Shown piece by piece: positions 3,305 to 60,292 of a DNA stretch of 64,000 nt. The notes below the pieces were generated by a model. That model saw only the letters and a list, made by a program, of their open reading frames with translations, was not told the DNA's origin and did not search any database. Both the position numbers and the translations under genes were made by a program. This DNA comes from Escherichia coli. Its GTDB lineage: Bacteria > Pseudomonadota > Gammaproteobacteria > Enterobacterales > Enterobacteriaceae. The stretch lies in NCBI RefSeq assembly GCF_044324875.1, contig NZ_CP172185.1. One strand, written 5' to 3'. How positions within the stretch are numbered: position 1 is the first letter of the stretch; each line of letters starts with the position of its first letter.

Positions 3305-3381
3305 GCGTTCATAGCTCAGTTGGTTAGAGCACCACCTTGACATGGTGGGGGTCGTTGGTTCGAGTCCAATTGAACGCACCA
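3305..3381 (+). tRNA. valV: tRNA-Val (GAC)
   Basis: GCGTTCATAGCTCAGTTGGTTAGAGCACCACCTTGACATGGTGG...CGCACCA; cloverleaf with GAC anticodon and CCA end. Confidence 0.93.
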
Positions 3382-3385
3382 TCCT

Positions 3386-3462
3386 GCGTCCGTAGCTCAG
3401 TTGGTTAGAGCACCACCTTGACATGGTGGGGGTCGGTGGTTCGAGTCCACTCGGACGCACCA
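3386..3462 (+). tRNA. valW: tRNA-Val (GAC), tandem copy
   Basis: GCGTCCGTAGCTCAGTTGGTTAGAGCACCACCTTGACATGGTGG...CGCACCA; 4-nt spacer after valV. Confidence 0.93.
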
Positions 3463-21539: not shown

Positions 21540-21610
21540 AAATAAGAAAACCCTTAAGTCTGTGCGACACAGGCTTAAGGGTTTCTACCCCATCCGGCGC
21601 TTATCTCCGG
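21540..21610 (-). ncRNA. rydB: small RNA, probably RydB, with its terminator
   Basis: Minus-strand hairpin aacccttaag...cttaagggtt followed by a U-run between sufA and ydiH; identity from remembered synteny, boundaries approximate. Confidence 0.35.
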
Positions 21611-21806
21611 CACTCTCAGTGGCTTAGCTCTTGAAGGGGCGATAAGAATAATCTCATAAAGCTAACCCGCCGTTTTAACACAAACTGCGATTAGTATTAT
21701 TTTTGAACAATATCAGGCGGGTAGATAAGCAGTATTAAGAAGGTCATCGAACCTGGACGGAGGTTAATCCAGGTCGATTTGGCGAAATTGCGGCATTAAG
21801 TCAGGA

Positions 21807-27244: not shown

Positions 27245-27349
27245 ACGGTTATAAATCAACTTATTGATTTATAAGCATGGAAATCCCCTGAGTGAAACAA
27301 CGAATTGCTGTGTGTAGTCTTTGCCCATCTCCCACGATGGGCTTTTTTT
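27245..27349 (+). ncRNA. rprA: RprA small regulatory RNA
   Basis: ACGGTTATAAATCAAC...CCCATCTCCCACGATGGGCTTTTTTTT matches the RprA sequence as remembered, including its terminator. Confidence 0.9.
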
Positions 27350-27487
27350 TAACATTTTTCCGCTTCGCTATCTCGCCCCTCACTCTTTCCAATAATGTTG
27401 CACAAGATACTGTGACTCTCTTCAAGCCGTCAGCAGGCTGATAATGTTATTTATATTTTATTGTTTATTTCATGCAGCCATTACACG

Positions 27488-49681: not shown

Positions 49682-50431
49682 TCAGATGGTCGAAATCAGC
49701 ATTCTGTGACCTTCGATATCCAGACGGCGAAAATTCATCCCATAGGCCTGCGCCAGATTTGGCGGCGTGAGCACCTCTTCCCTGCGTCCACTGGCCAGCA
49801 TTTTTCCACCTTTTAGCAACCACGCCCGATGCGCATGACGCAATGTATGGTTGAGATCGTGACTGCTCATCACAATCGCCAGTCCTTGCTGACACAGCGC
49901 GCTCAGAATTTTGTCTAATGCACTTTGTTGCGCAACATCAAGACTGTTCATCGGCTCATCAAGAAGCAGCAATTGGCCTGCGGGATTGGCTTGTGGTGTG
50001 ATTTGCAGCACCACCGCAGCAAGACGTACGCGTTGCCATTCGCCGCCGGAAAGTTGATTGGTGCTACGTCCGAGTTTGTCATCAAGAGTCAGCGCCCCTG
50101 CGACATCATTCAGTAGTTCGGTACGCGTTTTATCGTGCTGATGCAGTGTCAGGTAGTGCCAGACCGGCATTGCAAACGGTGGCGTCTGTTGTTGTGAAAG
50201 ATAGGCGCGATGCAGCGCGAGTTTTGTTGCGGACCATGCTTCCAGTGGTTGCCCCGCGAACTGAATGCTTCCCTTACCGCTGGTCATTCCGGCCATTCGC
50301 GCCAGTAAGGTACTCTTACCCGCGCCATTCGGCCCCACCAGGTGCAGGATCTCCCCAGCCCGAACCTCGCCAGAAAGCGGCCCCAGGCGGGTAGACTCCG
50401 CAACATCCTGTAACTGCATCACAATAGACAT
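49682..50431 (-). CDS. btuD: vitamin B12 ABC transporter ATPase
   Basis: Walker [10 protein letters not shown]; 249 aa. Confidence 0.92.
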
Positions 50432-50982
50432 TATTTTGCCAACGCCAGTTTAATGCTTTCCATCACAATGGGATCTTCCGGCGTCATATCCGGGGAAAAA
50501 CGCTGGATGACCAATCCGTCCCTGCCAACTAAAAATTTCTCAAAATTCCATAAGATATCATCAGGGTACAGCGGTGCACGACCTTTGCTGACCATACGGG
50601 CATAGAATCCGCTCTCTTCCGGCGCGACTGCGGTCGGCGCTGCGGCAATCAATTTTTGATACAGCGGATGGCGTCCTTCACCATTAACTTCAATCTTACT
50701 GAACATCGGGAACGTCACCCCCCATGTAGTGGTGCAGTAAGTTTTAATCTCTTCATCGCTGCCCGGTTCTTGCTCCAGAAACTGGTTGCACGGGAATCCC
50801 AGCACCACAAAACCACGATCGGCCCAGGCTTTCTGAATATTCTCCAACTGCTCATATTGCGGCGTTAAGCCACACTTTGAGGCGACATTGACAATCAACA
50901 GCACATTACCGGCGTACTTCTCCAGCGTGGTCACTTCACCGTCGATATCTTTCACTACGGTCGTCAGAATGGAATCTTGCAT
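50431..50982 (-). CDS. btuE: glutathione peroxidase-like BtuE
   Basis: 183-aa ORF. Confidence 0.9.
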
Positions 50983-51044: not shown

Positions 51045-52025
51045 CTAACGTCCTGCTTTTAACAATAACCAGATAAACACCGGCGCACCCAACGTTGCGG
51101 TGACCACGCCAATAGGCAGCTCTGCGGCAGCTAATGCCAGGCGCGCTACAACATCGGCCAGCAGCAATGCGCTCGCCCCTGCCAGCGCGCAGCCGGGAAG
51201 TAATACGCGATGATCGGTCAAACCACATAACCGGAGAATATGTGGGATCACCAGACCAATAAAGCCGATAGCACCCGCCAACGCCACACTGACGCCAACC
51301 ATCCAGCCGGTCGCTGCCACCAGCACATTGCGCCAGAACCACAGGGGTAAACCCAGTTGCCGCGCCGAGATCTCGCCAAGTGCTAACATATTCATCGGCC
51401 TGGACTGACAACAGATCCACAACAACACGGGGATCAATGCCAGCATCAGCCAGCTTTGCCGCCAGTCTACGCCGCCAAAACCGCCCATCATCCAGTACAT
51501 CAGCTGACGTAAATCAACAGAGGTGGAAAAGTAGATAGCCCACGTCATTAGTGCGCTACAGATAATCCCTAATGCAACGCCAGCCAGCAATAACCGACTG
51601 GTCGAAAGATGACGACGGGCGAAACGTAAGAGTATTAAAGTGATGATAAGCGCGCCAGCAATCGCACACAGCCCCAGCGCCCAGTTGGGGAGTTGCCCTT
51701 GCCCAAGCAATACAGCGGCGATAAGCCCCACGCCTGCGCCATTAGAGACGCCAAGTAGTCCAGGTTCTGCCAGAGGATTTTCAAATAACGCCTGCATTAC
51801 AGCGCCGGATATAGCCAACGCCGCACCAACCAGCAATACAGCCAGCGTACGTGGCAGGCGAATCTGCCAGACGAACAGTTCGCCTCGAGGAGAAAACCAG
51901 TCACCTGGCGAGATCCATTGTTCACCGGCGCAAAGGCTTAAGAGAAGCGCCAGCAGCATCAAAACTGACAGGCATAATAACCAGCGAATATTTTGTCGCT
52001 GTTGTTGGCGGGCAAGTGTCAGCAT
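51045..52025 (-). CDS. btuC: vitamin B12 ABC transporter permease
   Basis: 326-aa polytopic ORF. Confidence 0.92.
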
Positions 52026-52080: not shown

Positions 52081-52108
52081 TGAAAAGAAAAAAGGCCGCA
52101 GAGCGGCC
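52081..52108 (-). terminator. rho-independent terminator (minus strand) between prophage gene 52215..52610 and btuC
   Basis: Minus strand reads ggccgc tct gcggcc followed by ttttttcttttc. Confidence 0.55.
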
Positions 52109-52214
52109 ATAATTGCAATCAAAAATCAATAATTTAAATACTTATCAATCACTTAAGAACACATTAAAATACAAGCAACCACGCAAAACGACGTGAATGT
52201 GGTCACTTTGTGGA

Positions 52215-52610
52215 TCATTCGTCCCCTTCTTTCTCTTTGTTCTGTTGAACGCTAATTGCGACACACGTAGCAATCAAATCTTTACATTTCTCCATATCTT
52301 CTGTCTTGCGCAACTTGATGCTTGCCACCGATTGTGGATTATCCGCTGTGGCACAATGCATTGTTATTTCAATGTCGTTTCGATGAAAGAGTCCCATAAT
52401 AGCTTTTGCAACCTCCGTCCCTTTTTCCGCGATATCAAAGATCAAAGCAAGTTTATACAAAATATCACCAGAAAAACACTCAACCCTGCTAAGACCAACA
52501 TCACATAATGAAAAATATTGCTCAACGTCCCCCTGGAGTTCGGGAGCACACACAATATCTATTTTTCCGTACTGGCCTGAATAAAAGTCACTATTAACTG
52601 TTTTTTTCAC
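52215..52610 (-). CDS. hypothetical protein coupled to the 3' end of int (unknown function)
   Basis: GTG at 52610 preceded by a perfect AAGGAGG SD; start overlaps the int stop by 17 nt (track ORF begins at an upstream TTG, 52631). Visibly AT-rich relative to flanks. Confidence 0.6.
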   Translation of the reverse strand: MKKTVNSDFYSGQYGKIDIVCAPELQGDVEQYFSLCDVGLSRVECFSGDILYKLALIFDIAEKGTEVAKAIMGLFHRNDIEITMHCATADNPQSVASIKLRKTEDMEKCKDLIATCVAISVQQNKEKEGDE

Positions 52611-53595
52611 AACATCCTCCTTCTTCAGCAATTGGATTAAACCTCACCGCATCCTGCAAATAATCCGGTGCAAGATGGGCATAAATCATCGTTGTCTGAA
52701 TCTTTGCGTGCCCCAGAATTTTCTGGAGCGTCAGAATATTGCCGCCGTTCATCATGAAATGACTGGCGAAAGTGTGGCGCAGCGCGTGAACGGCCTGCCC
52801 GTCAGGAATGGAAGGGGCAACCGCTTTTATCGAATCGCGCACCAGTGAATAATCCAGCGCCGGAAATACCAGCTTTCCGCCCCGTTTTTTAATTTTGTCA
52901 AACAGGCTTTCAGAAATTGGAACAGTCCGGTTTTTACTGTTTTTGGTTCTGGAAAATGTGATCCGGGAATGCAGAACGCGGCGCTGTTCAAGTGCCACCA
53001 CCTCACCCCATCGCGCCCCGGTAGATAAAAGAATTTCAGTAGCTAGCCGTTCGTCGGGATGCTCTACCAGAACGTCAAGCAGCTGGAGGCACTCCTGCCT
53101 GTTCAGATACCCCATTTCGCGCTCGCTGACCTTCATCCCTTTCAGTCCGCTAACAGGGTTATCATTCTGGAAGTGACCGGATGAGATGAGTGCGGAAAAC
53201 ATCGCGCTAAGCGCACCAACCTCGCGGTTTATGGTACTTGGCTGAATCCCCTCCTCCGCTCTTGCCACGCGTAATTCCGTTAACGTGGTGGCGTTGACGT
53301 TGTTAACACGCGGATCCCCCATCGCTTCACACACGCGCTGTAATTTGAGGCGTGTGTTCCACCCCGATTTCATCAGTTGCCCGTGAAACTTCCACCATAA
53401 TTCGATAAGTTCGGACAACGAACGGCGATCGGTCGGCGCACTGTTCCATGCGTTATTTTGGTGTTGAGCTAAAACCCAGCGTTCGAACTGGATAGCCTCC
53501 GACTTTGTTTTGAACTTTTTACGAATGCGTTTACCTTTGCGCCCATCAGGACGCATATCAACCATGTAGCCACCAGGGATTGATTTTATGCTCAT
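52594..53595 (-). CDS. int: tyrosine-type site-specific integrase (P2-like)
   Basis: C-terminal HALRHTFASHF...LGHAKIQTTMIYAHL catalytic region; start set at MSIKSIPGGY. Confidence 0.9.
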   Translation of the reverse strand: MSIKSIPGGYMVDMRPDGRKGKRIRKKFKTKSEAIQFERWVLAQHQNNAWNSAPTDRRSLSELIELWWKFHGQLMKSGWNTRLKLQRVCEAMGDPRVNNVNATTLTELRVARAEEGIQPSTINREVGALSAMFSALISSGHFQNDNPVSGLKGMKVSEREMGYLNRQECLQLLDVLVEHPDERLATEILLSTGARWGEVVALEQRRVLHSRITFSRTKNSKNRTVPISESLFDKIKKRGGKLVFPALDYSLVRDSIKAVAPSIPDGQAVHALRHTFASHFMMNGGNILTLQKILGHAKIQTTMIYAHLAPDYLQDAVRFNPIAEEGGCCEKNS

Positions 53596-53644
53596 TGGCA
53601 TACCCCCAGCGTCACAAGCCCACCGTGCCCCCAGCGTTCCATAA

Positions 53645-53953
53645 TCAGCCGTGCAGTGTGCCAGTCTTGCGGACTTTTTGAGAAGGTGATGTGCTTTCTG
53701 GCCCATCAGGGGAGAGAGTCGGGCTGATCTGCCCAGCAGCCTCGTTTGTTTTTCCCGTCATGAGCCAATTCATGTACTTAAAAAAACGAGGATGATTAAC
53801 AATCTTGACGAGAGCTTCGCCGCCGACATTCTCAATCCGACCTGTCTCATAACGGCGTAGAGTACCGATAGGTACATCAATCAGTTCACAAAACTCTTCA
53901 CGCGTTAACCCTTCCGACTCACGAATTACTCTGATTTTTTCACCAATAAACAT
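53645..53953 (-). CDS. P2 C-type immunity repressor
   Basis: 102-aa HTH protein immediately upstream of and co-oriented with int, divergent from the early operon. Confidence 0.7.
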   Translation of the reverse strand: MFIGEKIRVIRESEGLTREEFCELIDVPIGTLRRYETGRIENVGGEALVKIVNHPRFFKYMNWLMTGKTNEAAGQISPTLSPDGPESTSPSQKVRKTGTLHG

Positions 53954-53975: not shown

Positions 53976-54018
53976 GTATTCTTGATTTCAAGGTGTACTT
54001 ATAAGTACACAAGAATAC
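53976..54018. promoter_or_regulatory. operator/promoter region between repressor and early operon
   Basis: Perfect 18-bp palindrome GTGTACTTATAAGTACAC (53993..54010) flanked by gtattcttg / caagaatac; TTGACA at 53954..53959. Confidence 0.6.
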
Positions 54019-54050
54019 AAATAGCCACAGACTGGAAAGGTTACCACATC

Positions 54051-54329
54051 ATGACAAAAGTCTTGAACACATACGGGGAGACGGACTTCAACAAGCTGGC
54101 GGCAATGTACCCCTACCGTGATGAGCATGGACTGCCAGTTCTTGAGGAAAGCCTTGAGGACTACGCCAAACGAACCAATCAAGCCCTGAACACTGTTAAA
54201 AAACAGGTCGACAGAGCGCAGATCCCTATAAATCAGCATAAAAAAGGCGGGAAACGCACAGTAAATCTCTACGCAATTTTTCTGAAAACCATCATAAACG
54301 CAGAGAAATATGTACTCATGACGAAATAA
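54051..54329 (+). CDS. first early-operon gene in the Cox/Apl position (putative small DNA-binding regulator)
   Basis: 92-aa ORF from the ATG at 54051 with ggaaagg RBS; function by position only. Confidence 0.5.
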   Translation: MTKVLNTYGETDFNKLAAMYPYRDEHGLPVLEESLEDYAKRTNQALNTVKKQVDRAQIPINQHKKGGKRTVNLYAIFLKTIINAEKYVLMTK

Positions 54330-57131: not shown

Positions 57132-57454
57132 GCAATCACCATGTACACACAAAAAAACCGCTTGCAACAACAAACCGGAACAGGGTACGCTTCCCCCGCA
57201 CCTCATAAAGCGGGTGCCGGGTTTCGCAGCCTGCTGACTAGCAAAGCGCACAACCGCGCCAGCGGTTTTTTTGTGCGTACTGTATTGCCACGTCTTTTTC
57301 GCATCAGAATTATGGTGGGGCGTACGGGGCCGACTTCGGTCGGGCCGGTTTCTTCGTTTGCCGGTGTTGAGAACCCCGTACGTCTCGCCACCCCGAGATT
57401 CTCAACTCTGGTTGGTGAGTATCCAAAAACTCACAAACGAAGAGGCCAAACACC

Positions 57455-57673
57455 ATGGCAAACCGCAAACAGCGCCGCGCTATCGCTGCGCAGCGTCACA
57501 TCCAGACCGAAATCAACCGCAGACTCTTCCGCGCCCACAACATCGCGCGAATCATGCACGCCAACATGCTGCATGAACGCAGTAACGCGTTATCAAACCT
57601 CTATTCCGCTTCCGTTTTCAGCTATCTGGCGGACGACCTGCGCGAGCTGCAAGACCTCATTAACCAGCACTGA
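57455..57673 (+). CDS. hypothetical protein
   Basis: 72-aa ORF with aagagg RBS. Confidence 0.5.
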   Translation: MANRKQRRAIAAQRHIQTEINRRLFRAHNIARIMHANMLHERSNALSNLYSASVFSYLADDLRELQDLINQH

Positions 57674-57745
57674 TAAACAACCCGAAGCCATCCTGCGCCC
57701 GTTCGCGGGAGGCTTCCGCACATCTGTAGTCGGGAGGATTGCGCC

Positions 57746-58114
57746 ATGATTCTGGCTGACGATTTTCTGGAGTACCTGAACAACACCGAGCGCGACCTGT
57801 ACGCGCGCGTTCTCACCCGTTACGAGAAATACAAACTTTCGCTGCCAGAACATCAACTCCGCGAAGGCGATATCGACATTGAAGGGCGCTACATCGTCAG
57901 GCACCTCATAGCGGGCTACGGCATCTGGCGTGTCACCGGACGTGAGCATTCATTGCTGACCATCTGCCAGAGTCCGTCCGGCGTGATAACGGAGATCGTC
58001 GCTGATAGTCTGCGACTCACCCATCACAGCGCCACCCCGGAAGAAACGCTGGCAGAAACCCAGCGTCTGTGTCGCGTCATTGCCAACGCCGCCCTCCGCG
58101 CAGACAGGAGGTAA
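57746..58114 (+). CDS. hypothetical protein immediately upstream of gene A
   Basis: 122-aa ORF with gggagg RBS; 3-nt gap to the A start. Confidence 0.55.
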   Translation: MILADDFLEYLNNTERDLYARVLTRYEKYKLSLPEHQLREGDIDIEGRYIVRHLIAGYGIWRVTGREHSLLTICQSPSGVITEIVADSLRLTHHSATPEETLAETQRLCRVIANAALRADRR

Positions 58115-58117
58115 GCG

Positions 58118-60292
58118 ATGGAGTTCGTCAGAGACTGGCAAAAACCGCGCCCCGCTATCGGGCGCGAAGGCTTACCCGTACCTGAAACCGCACTGGATAC
58201 CATCCTGAAGTGTTACCGCGCGGACGAAGAGCGCGCCCTGAACGCTGAAGAGCAGGGTCATCCGCTTGCGGGCACAACCATCGGTAACGCGATCGACAAG
58301 TGGGAAGGCGCACAGGAGCGCCAGGAAGAGGCCATCACGCTCACACAGGAAGCGAAGAGACGCCCACCCACCCTCATTGAGGAAACCCTCAAAGAGCTGG
58401 ACACCCTGCCAAAGTGGTTGAGGCTGCCACTGATTAAGTACCTGAACTTCTTAAGGCGCAAACAGGAGGACGAACAGCAGAAAGGCAAGCGCGGCAAGGA
58501 CACCCGCAAATATGAGCGCTTCCTGAAAAACGGCATCCCCGCACGTCTTCGCCGTATTCGTGAGATTAACGCTCGCTTTGCACCGTTAAGTTTTCAGGCC
58601 GCTGCCATGCGCGAGAGTCTGGAAGAGTTAATCACACTGCCGAACCTGAGCCGTGAACGCATCCAGAAAATAGCCGTACTGCTTGCCAGCGCCGTTAAAA
58701 TGCATCTTGCCGACGCAATGGACAAGGCCCGCGAAATAACAGGGAACGACAAAGACGACAACCTGAACAACTGGCTGATTGCCTACCAGTATATTGGTCG
58801 CCGTGTCCTGAAGCTGGGGATCACCCCACCATACTGGAGCGCCCTTGAACTCCGTCCCGACCGCAGAAGCCCCCCGGACCTGACACTGGTACCGGGCGCT
58901 GTTTTGCGCCTGAACGACGCCGAATGGTGGAATAAAAAACTTCGCCAGATGCACGACGTCTGGCGTGAGGAACTTTTACGTGCAGCGGGCCTTGTATCCC
59001 GCCAGACCTCCATTTATGTGAGCCGGGAAGCGCTGGCAGACTTCCGCGAGAAACAGGCCCGTACCCGCGATTTTCTCAAAGCGCACGACGTGGAGAACGA
59101 AGACGGCGAACGCATCAGCCTGGAAGATATCTACTACGCCAGTACATCCAACCCGCATAACCGCCGCAACGAGATGATGGCGTGCGTCAAGGGAATGGAG
59201 CTTATCGCACAGGAACGTGGCGACGTGGCCTTCTTCGTCACGGTCACAGCCCCGTCTCGTTTTCACAGCGTCACCGACGCCGGTACCCTTAACCCGAAAT
59301 ACAAAGGCACAACAGTAAAAGACGCCAGCGACTATCTGGTTTATAACTTCTTCGCCTCCGCCCGCAAACTCATCAAAAAAGAGAAGCGGGGCTGGTACGG
59401 CATTCGCACCGTGGAGCCTCACCACGACGGCACGCCCCACTGGCACATGCTGGTATTCACAAGCCCCGAGAACGAAGCGCGCATCACGGAAATCATGTGC
59501 AATGCCGCCATCCGTGAAGACCGTGCAGAGCTGGGCGACGACATTACCCCGCGCTTCAAGTGCGAGAAGATAGACCCCGAAAAAGGTACGCCAACCAGCT
59601 ACATCGCCACCTACATCGGCAAAGGCATTGACGCCGCCGCATTCGGCGACACGGATCCCAAAACAGGCAAACCGCCCGTTGACCACGAAAGCGGAAAACC
59701 TATGGCGGACACCGTGGAAAACGCCGTCGCCTGGGCACGCCTGCATCGCATTCGCCAGTTCCAGTTCTTTGGCCTTCCCTCACGTCAGGTGTGGCGCGAG
59801 TTCCGCCGCCTTGCCGGACAAATGGCACGCAACCCGAAGGGGCCGCAGGCACTGACCAACCCCAAAGCCGACGCCCTCCTTGTTGCAGCCGATACGGGGT
59901 GTTTTGCCAGCTACATCATGCATCAGGGCGGTGTGCTCATTCCCCGCAGTGAATATCTGGCCCGCACGGCCTACGTCACCGCAGAAGAGCCGAACAACTA
60001 CGGCGAGTTCCCCGACCGTATTTACGGTGTACGGATGCCGGAACTGGGCGATGAGTTCACGTTATGTACCCACCCGGAAGAGTGGAAAATCGTCAGAAAG
60101 GAACCGGAACCAGACAACCGCACGGGCGAGGGTTTTGACCTTCAGGGCGACCCCGTCGCCCCTTGGACTCGTGGCAATAACTGTCACCCTGACGAAAAAA
60201 ACAACCAACAACAGCACACAAACAGAACAGTCAGAGTGGGCAAAACTGCCCCCCTTACCCCCATCGTCGGACGGTTTTGTGAGCTGGTTTAA
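58118..60292 (+). CDS. replication initiation endonuclease (P2 gpA / 186 A family, rolling-circle)
   Basis: 724-aa ORF with caggagg RBS; HDGTPHWHMLVF metal-binding motif and YIATYIGKG active-site tyrosine region. Confidence 0.85.
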   Translation: MEFVRDWQKPRPAIGREGLPVPETALDTILKCYRADEERALNAEEQGHPLAGTTIGNAIDKWEGAQERQEEAITLTQEAKRRPPTLIEETLKELDTLPKWLRLPLIKYLNFLRRKQEDEQQKGKRGKDTRKYERFLKNGIPARLRRIREINARFAPLSFQAAAMRESLEELITLPNLSRERIQKIAVLLASAVKMHLADAMDKAREITGNDKDDNLNNWLIAYQYIGRRVLKLGITPPYWSALELRPDRRSPPDLTLVPGAVLRLNDAEWWNKKLRQMHDVWREELLRAAGLVSRQTSIYVSREALADFREKQARTRDFLKAHDVENEDGERISLEDIYYASTSNPHNRRNEMMACVKGMELIAQERGDVAFFVTVTAPSRFHSVTDAGTLNPKYKGTTVKDASDYLVYNFFASARKLIKKEKRGWYGIRTVEPHHDGTPHWHMLVFTSPENEARITEIMCNAAIREDRAELGDDITPRFKCEKIDPEKGTPTSYIATYIGKGIDAAAFGDTDPKTGKPPVDHESGKPMADTVENAVAWARLHRIRQFQFFGLPSRQVWREFRRLAGQMARNPKGPQALTNPKADALLVAADTGCFASYIMHQGGVLIPRSEYLARTAYVTAEEPNNYGEFPDRIYGVRMPELGDEFTLCTHPEEWKIVRKEPEPDNRTGEGFDLQGDPVAPWTRGNNCHPDEKNNQQQHTNRTVRVGKTAPLTPIVGRFCELV

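Follow-up and report, generated by a model that had tools for sequence, protein, structure and literature searches.

What is the role of a small gene that lies between the integrase gene (int) of a P2-like prophage and the attachment site (att) at which the prophage meets its host chromosome? The question is raised by a 64,000-nucleotide stretch of Escherichia coli DNA (assembly GCF_044324875.1, contig NZ_CP172185.1; hereafter the window), in which a first-pass annotation, made from the sequence alone, had singled out an AT-rich open reading frame (ORF) of 131-138 amino acids (aa) at the 3' end of int. Comparison with related prophages reveals that the int-att position is an exchangeable cargo slot of P2-like prophages and that this ORF is accessory cargo within it. 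The ORF belongs to phrog_14142, a PHROGs v4 family that is already catalogued and is of unknown function. On balance, we favour the view that it is an accessory ("moron") gene of the lysogeny operon that encodes a soluble binding protein, probably acting in phage-phage or host conflict.

An exchangeable slot between int and att

The integrase type of the window prophage is present in 298 of 5426 complete E. coli genomes, and 151-158 of these also have the ORF; the genomes that have this integrase without the ORF align only from the 3' end of int onward. The first-pass annotation had proposed checking whether related prophages carry different cargo at the same position, and the answer is affirmative. 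In the three ORF-less genomes examined (BUCT2930, O145:H28 12E115, and 2013C-3033), what separates int from the same att arm and core is phrog_4293 (120-132 aa), which abuts or overlaps the int stop codon, followed by phrog_9415 (134-145 aa). This cassette shares with the ORF its slot, its integrase type, and its attP arm, while consisting of two genes rather than one and encoding proteins unrelated to the ORF product. Distant homology of phrog_4293 or phrog_9415 to the ORF was considered and rejected, as the hhalign probability was below 1%. In PADLOC, one of the two cassette genes gave a single marginal match to LmuB (E 0.0075) and the other gave none. Motifs of the CxxC type were observed in phrog_4293.

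The arrangement recalls old, tin, and Z/fun of P2 and the cargo of the P2/P4 hotspots, which likewise consist of AT-rich accessory genes, with unrelated cassettes alternating between conserved flanks. Unlike these genes, the ORF has no sequence or fold likeness to them and no PADLOC match, and it encodes a single small non-enzymatic protein; it also sits in a presumed operon with the immunity repressor gene (C) and int, whereas the P2/P4 hotspot cargo adjoins cos or lies amid the tail genes. The int-att position has been reported as a minor defence hotspot, with 3% of P2 defence systems (Moura de Sousa et al. 2026 preprint, bioRxiv 10.64898/2026.02.27.708500), while a third P2 hotspot has been placed between a tail protein and CI (Egorov & Atkinson 2024 preprint, bioRxiv 10.1101/2024.10.15.618418) and a cI-int hotspot has been described in Vibrio P2-related phages (Rousset et al. 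2022, PMC9122126). Since the position is thus already known for swappable accessory genes, the ORF is an ordinary kind of feature; at the same time, recognition of the slot as a minor hotspot is very recent, and the genes usually found in it (phrog_14142, and the pair phrog_4293 and phrog_9415) are uncharacterised.

Gene structure and expression signals

The predicted ORF was borne out on the minus strand, with two possible starts: a GTG giving 131 aa (52215..52610) and an alternative TTG at 52631 giving 138 aa (52215..52631). The GTG is the supported start because the phrog_14142 profile and all homologues begin there; the profile matches over its full length (E 2.9e-52, 176.9 bits), with ORF residues 8-135 aligned to profile positions 1-128 of 128. 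The GC content of the ORF (40%, and 37% at third codon positions) stands against 50% for int and 55% for the host gene btuC, in agreement with the AT-richness that had been claimed. Its substitutions relative to two other alleles, with a ratio of nonsynonymous to synonymous divergence (dN/dS) of 0.17-0.25 at a dS of 0.97-1.26, show that the ORF is a real gene that encodes a conserved protein and is subject to purifying selection. An antisense ORF of 103 aa (52197-52508, plus strand) was rejected, as it belongs to no family and the substitutions fit the minus-strand frame.

The perfect AAGGAGG Shine-Dalgarno (SD) sequence noted by the first-pass annotation is present 5 nucleotides (nt) upstream of the GTG, within the last codons of int. 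The start of the ORF indeed falls inside int, whose reading frame stops at 52594 and overlaps the ORF by 17 nt. This overlap arises because the int stop codon is lost in the window allele (TAA to GAA), which adds 9 codons, so that Int is 9 residues longer and ends in …IAEEGGCCEKNS (52594-52623, minus strand). The overlap is particular to the window allele: in its relatives, the TAA lies within the SD sequence and there is a gap of 10-11 nt, as in the prophage of E. coli O26:H11, where the int stop codon is the first triplet of TAAGGAGG, the homologue of the SD sequence, and a 10-nt gap follows. No sequestering mRNA structure was predicted in the start region of the ORF (z = 0.04). The geometry makes translational coupling of the ORF to int, as had been proposed, plausible; given the absence of predicted structure at the start, such coupling is possible but not required.

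The placement of the ORF in the repressor-int transcription unit agrees with the geometry of the locus. The genes C and int and the ORF share the minus strand, C and int are 46 nt apart, and a consensus terminator scan between C and the ORF returned only one weak, chance-level site, inside int (53215..53203). In P2, C and int are co-transcribed from the promoter Pc in lysogens. By analogy with P2, the ORF would be transcribed in the lysogen as the third cistron of a C-int mRNA and translated from its own strong, unstructured SD sequence overlapping the end of int, with ribosomes that finish int crossing the ORF start, and the C-int-ORF transcript would stop at the hairpin of the att core. Because this SD sequence is strong and unstructured, the ORF product could exceed Int in amount. 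A parallel is offered by rexAB of phage lambda, which is co-transcribed with cI: the likeness lies in an accessory gene on the immunity-repressor transcript that is hence made in lysogens, as would by analogy be the case for the ORF. Rex is a two-component, membrane-linked system, unlike the ORF product, which is one soluble protein and has no homology to it.

Integration at the ihfA terminator

Comparison of the host junctions places the prophage at the terminator of ihfA, between ihfA and btuC. Homology to prophage-free genomes such as K-12 ends at 52108, the prophage begins at 52109, and the core AAAGAAAAAAGGCCGCAGAGCGGCC is common to attB of K-12, attL of the window, and attR of O26:H11. 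The core is at the same time the intrinsic terminator hairpin of ihfA. Read on the minus strand, GGCCGCTCTGCGGCC + TTTTTTCTTT (52108..52094) is the only strong terminator downstream of the ORF. Here the first-pass annotation was in error, since it had assigned the ORF a terminator of its own before the host junction, and this terminator is the att core itself, a copy of that of host ihfA. As a consequence of integration into the ihfA terminator, the terminator copy ends transcripts leaving int and the ORF.

Between the ORF stop codon and the core lies an AT-rich phage arm of attL (Table 1), in which the only hairpin is a weak one (52196-52179, minus strand). Repeats of TCCACAAAGTGACCACAT (52214-52197, minus strand) begin directly after the TGA of the ORF. 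The direct-repeat motif TCCACA-N5-GACCACAT (window 52195-52214, minus strand) is found near the att core at at least five other integration sites, and it is located upstream of the more distant, B-type relatives of the ORF described below (loci L003, L005, L009, L012, L015, L018, and L030). These repeats are probable arm-type binding sites of Int.

The phrog_14142 family and its genomic contexts

A phmmer search of 1.84 billion representatives returned 12 proteins at E <= 0.001, and a profile search of 5.8 billion clusters returned 64 family clusters (90% identity). One phmmer match, P0011 (1083 aa), was spurious and repetitive and was excluded as a family member. The named clusters all come from Enterobacterales (Escherichia, Salmonella, Citrobacter, Enterobacter, Klebsiella/Raoultella, Yersinia, Pectobacterium, Kosakonia, Pantoea, and Yokenella), every one of them is labelled "hypothetical," and none has a Pfam domain; a wider profile built from 45 sequences found no further relatives outside Enterobacterales. 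Searches with tblastn gave no match to the A-type and B-type proteins among 50,697 phage records and none to the family among 72,556 plasmids, and a literature search by the RefSeq protein accessions of the members found no papers. About 3% of complete E. coli genomes have a member, those of the O26, O104:H4, O111, and O55:H7 lineages among them, and the gene is common in pathogenic E. coli. The window allele shares 71% identity with the allele that is common in E. coli; no near-identical allele occurs in the 5426 complete E. coli genomes, and the only match at 99% is a 774-nt ENA contig.

The first-pass annotation had recognised no domain in the ORF, and searches of Pfam (the ORF protein and all 45 family members), NCBIfam, PADLOC-DB v2.0.0 (0 defence families at E <= 1 for the ORF), and PDB sequences (single protein and profile) were likewise empty. 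The profile-HMM (hidden Markov model) and structure-prediction searches that it had suggested led to the family phrog_14142 and to no function-bearing match.

In all contexts examined, the gene lies at the edge of a P2-like prophage, flanks attP, and has the orientation of int, and two arrangements can be distinguished. The A-type genes (131 aa; 45-71% identical to the window protein), which include the ORF, follow the order C-int-ORF-att-host and occur at btuC (in E. coli and a related assembly) and at greA. The B-type genes (about 128 aa; 28-37% identical to the window protein) follow the order host gene-att-ORF, succeeded by a convergent hok and/or by ogr-D or tail genes, and occur at no fewer than eight sites: fabF, raiA, dsbB, a U32-peptidase gene, mlaA, rph, a gene of the tamB region, and a gene of the prp region. 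When the phage map is drawn as a circle, A-type and B-type genes share one place, between int and ogr, and point the same way as int; all that differs is the crossover point. The B-type gene stays with the att-hok module even though the neighbouring structural genes differ (L018 versus L020).

Prophages at the ihfA/btuC site can hold both types (L030 4880-5174; L033 1207-1380 and 15521-15916): the A-type gene beside int is intact, and a decayed B-type copy lies at the ogr/hok end. The decayed copy has an upstream stop codon and has lost about 18 internal codons, so that a C-terminal ORF of 57 aa is left, and in the O26 prophage the B-type copy is deleted outright. The prophage of MEI7BO1-21 is a 15-kb remnant in which C, int, and the ORF are still intact. 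In the O26:H11 11368 prophage, a His-Xaa-Ser radical-SAM system (hxsDBCA) lies between D and ogr (L021 6125-9522) and a hok/gef gene lies between ogr and attR (L021 10226-10366), so that cargo is carried on the ogr side of att as well.

Predicted fold of the ORF product

The ORF encodes a protein of 14.6 kDa with an isoelectric point (pI) of 4.8; the family median is 5.7, and values reach 9.9. AlphaFold2, run with 45 family sequences, gave a model with a predicted local distance difference test score (pLDDT) of 80.8 and a predicted template modelling score (pTM) of 0.74, in which the first 10 residues are disordered and the elements follow the order beta-alpha-beta-beta-alpha-beta-beta-alpha-beta. 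The model thus predicts a ferredoxin/ACT-like alpha/beta sandwich core with a beta-alpha-beta extension. A structure search of BFVD with this model gave no match, and AFDB50 returned the family itself together with about 20 uncharacterised proteins of 110-140 aa from other Proteobacteria at a template modelling (TM) score of about 0.6; neither database held an informative structural neighbour.

The invariant or nearly invariant residues of the family include Cys21, Cys45, Cys109, His10, Arg77, Asp79, Glu81, and Asp105, with His10 present in 96% of members, and their conservation suggests that the three cysteines and His10 could form a metal site. The window allele has Tyr at the position of His10 (codon 10, 52581-52583, minus strand) and Phe at the preceding, near-invariant Leu. 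Membrane-bound or secreted exclusion proteins of the Sie, Imm, or Cor type do not resemble the family, as the maximum of the Kyte-Doolittle 19-residue window is at most 1.28 in all 45 members and no hydrophobic N-terminus was found. A recombination directionality factor such as Cox, Apl, or Xis was also sought, and there was no Pfam or PHROG excisionase match, the predicted fold being an alpha/beta sandwich. With no transmembrane segment, catalytic motif, or DNA-binding fold in the model, the ORF product would most likely be a soluble binder of a partner rather than a catalyst.

Proposed role and alternatives

In Enterobacterales, few mobile elements carry anti-phage genes as commonly as P2-like prophages do. 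From the location of the ORF and the usual accessory content of P2 elements, we tentatively propose a conflict factor expressed in the lysogen, for which protection against superinfecting phages would be a first guess. Among the conflict roles, our guess is to put exclusion or defence first and counter-defence second.

Several observations weigh against this proposal. Because there was no PADLOC match and no informative structural neighbour, it is the location of the gene that carries the conflict role. Across genera and att sites, the family is found in a single syntenic position, a constancy that would suit a phage-intrinsic function better than defence cargo that is swapped rapidly. A soluble protein of 131 aa without an enzymatic domain would be an unusual stand-alone defence. 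Neither a consensus scan nor inspection by eye convincingly located a Pc promoter, and in the B-type copies a hairpin resembling a terminator stands about 20 nt ahead of the start codon, with no promoter evident. Moreover, the window allele itself may be functionally altered because Tyr replaces a His found in 96% of the family.

The ORF product is small, soluble, mostly acidic (pI 4.8; family median 5.7), of orphan fold, and without an enzymatic motif, and small acidic non-enzymatic proteins of orphan fold have the typical traits of phage inhibitor proteins. A counter-defence or host-takeover inhibitor, made from the Pc operon early as well as in the lysogen and binding a host immune protein or another host protein, would fit these traits, and by P2 biology the Pc operon should be active immediately after infection. 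We nevertheless regard this as unlikely: the pI within the family rises to 9.9, so that a DNA-mimic-like charge is not conserved; there is no likeness, in sequence or fold, to solved anti-defence proteins in the PDB; and defence genes dominate the accessory loci of P2 elements, with anti-defence genes in only 28 of 1511 (bioRxiv 10.64898/2026.02.27.708500). It is quite unlikely that the ORF is instead a life-cycle factor of the integration module, modulating the level or activity of Int, the architecture of attP, or the lysogeny decision. The gene is evidently dispensable, being absent from roughly half of the prophages that have this type of int and replaced by an unrelated cassette in the three examined, and this stands against the constancy with which the family flanks attP in int orientation at at least 10 att sites in several genera. 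In the same way, the gene moves with the int-att-hok module though the adjacent structural genes differ (L018 versus L020), yet prophages at the ihfA site have the B-type copy in decayed form or have lost it, and no member occurs among the 50,697 deposited phage records. The A-type gene abuts or overlaps the int stop codon and its own stop codon adjoins the probable Int arm sites; a separate Cox-like directionality factor is, however, already present, and the fold predicted for the ORF product is not one known from DNA-binding proteins or excisionases.

Another alternative, which we hold to be very unlikely, is a lysogenic-conversion factor that serves host physiology or virulence outside phage conflict, for example as a small-molecule-sensing, ACT-like regulator. 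The model of the ORF product shares its predicted ferredoxin-like core with the ACT/RAM-type small-molecule-binding domains, but neither a significant Pfam ACT match nor a strong structural match was obtained. Chance retention of a non-functional or decaying ORF beside int is the least probable explanation, and extremely so. The rarity and divergence of the window allele, its Tyr at the near-invariant His10, and the decay of the paralogous B-type copies would be in its favour, whereas the ORF has an unbroken reading frame and a strong SD sequence, shows the low dN/dS given above at a dS of about 1 against two alleles, and has remained intact even in the 15-kb defective remnant of MEI7BO1-21.

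Returning to the conflict role that we favour, phrog_14142 may, as one possible and still doubtful specification, represent a new single-protein immunity or counter-immunity factor, encoded in the lysogeny operon, with a new fold and a Cys3(His) metal site, carried in a mobile int-attP-(hok) module. If this is true, A-type copies would stay linked to int after integration, while B-type copies would be cut off by the crossover and come to lie behind a host gene, and this placement would lead to differing expression in the free and the integrated state. With a conflict phenotype, the catalogue of defence and counter-defence would gain a new small-protein mechanism of orphan fold; an effect on Int or att function would make the ORF a new accessory factor of site-specific recombination; and if there were no measurable effect, it would be one more ordinary moron, of which prophages have many.

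Other features of the prophage and its surroundings

The coordinates of the ORF and its neighbours are collected in Table 1. The P2-like nature of the prophage is apparent from its gene layout: C and the tyrosine integrase gene share one strand, and they face, on the other, a Cox-like gene and the replication gene gpA. The start of the integrase is probably the Met of MSIKS, and its best deposited relative, at 58% identity, is from a Klebsiella P2-like element. The prophage extends past the end of the window (64000), outside which its late genes and attR lie; in the O26 and MEI7BO1-21 prophages at the same site, ogr, D, and the sheath and tube genes are present.

Table 1. Coordinates of the ORF, its signals, and neighbouring features in the window, and of alternative slot occupants in compared loci (L numbers)
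Feature	Coordinates	Strand	Remarks
Cargo ORF	52215..52610	minus	131 aa, GTG start; phrog_14142 member, A-type (int-linked)
Shine-Dalgarno AAGGAGG	52622-52616	minus	5 nt upstream of GTG, within last int codons
P2-type tyrosine integrase	52594..53598	minus	phrog_1; 46% identity to P2 Int
C-type helix-turn-helix immunity repressor	53645..53953	minus	phrog_147, E 4.5e-31; first gene of presumed C-int-ORF unit
attL arm, phage side	52109..52214	minus	106 nt between ORF stop and core, 30% GC
att core	52084..52108		ihfA intrinsic terminator hairpin
Cox-like gene	53982-54329	plus	phrog_575/11533
gpA replication nickase	58118-60292	plus	phrog_91; several small early genes between Cox-like gene and gpA
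Host btuC	51045..52025	minus	first host gene past junction
Host btuE	50431-50982	minus	E. coli chromosome
Host btuD	49682-50431	minus	E. coli chromosome
phrog_4293 + phrog_9415 cassette	L023 3785-4584; L024 1684-2483; L025 1558-2473		alternative slot occupant
phrog_4293 after int	L002 3973-4362		Klebsiella P2-like element (CP052639)

A perfect 18-bp palindrome, GTGTACTTATAAGTACAC, was observed in the C/Cox intergenic switch region (53990-54010, minus strand) and is a likely operator. Further into the early region, matches at the Rfam gathering level were obtained on the plus strand for isrK (57198-57272) and for C4 antisense RNA (57308-57395). These matches overlie a "regulator" ORF of 202 aa (57141-57749; phrog_6928/995) of the P2-like early operon, and the region looks like a c4/ant-like immunity module of the P1/P7 type within a P2-like prophage. 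Elsewhere in the window, the host chromosome has two tRNA-Val(GAC) genes, the rydB small RNA (sRNA), and the RprA sRNA (3305-3462, 21580-21640, and 27245-27352).

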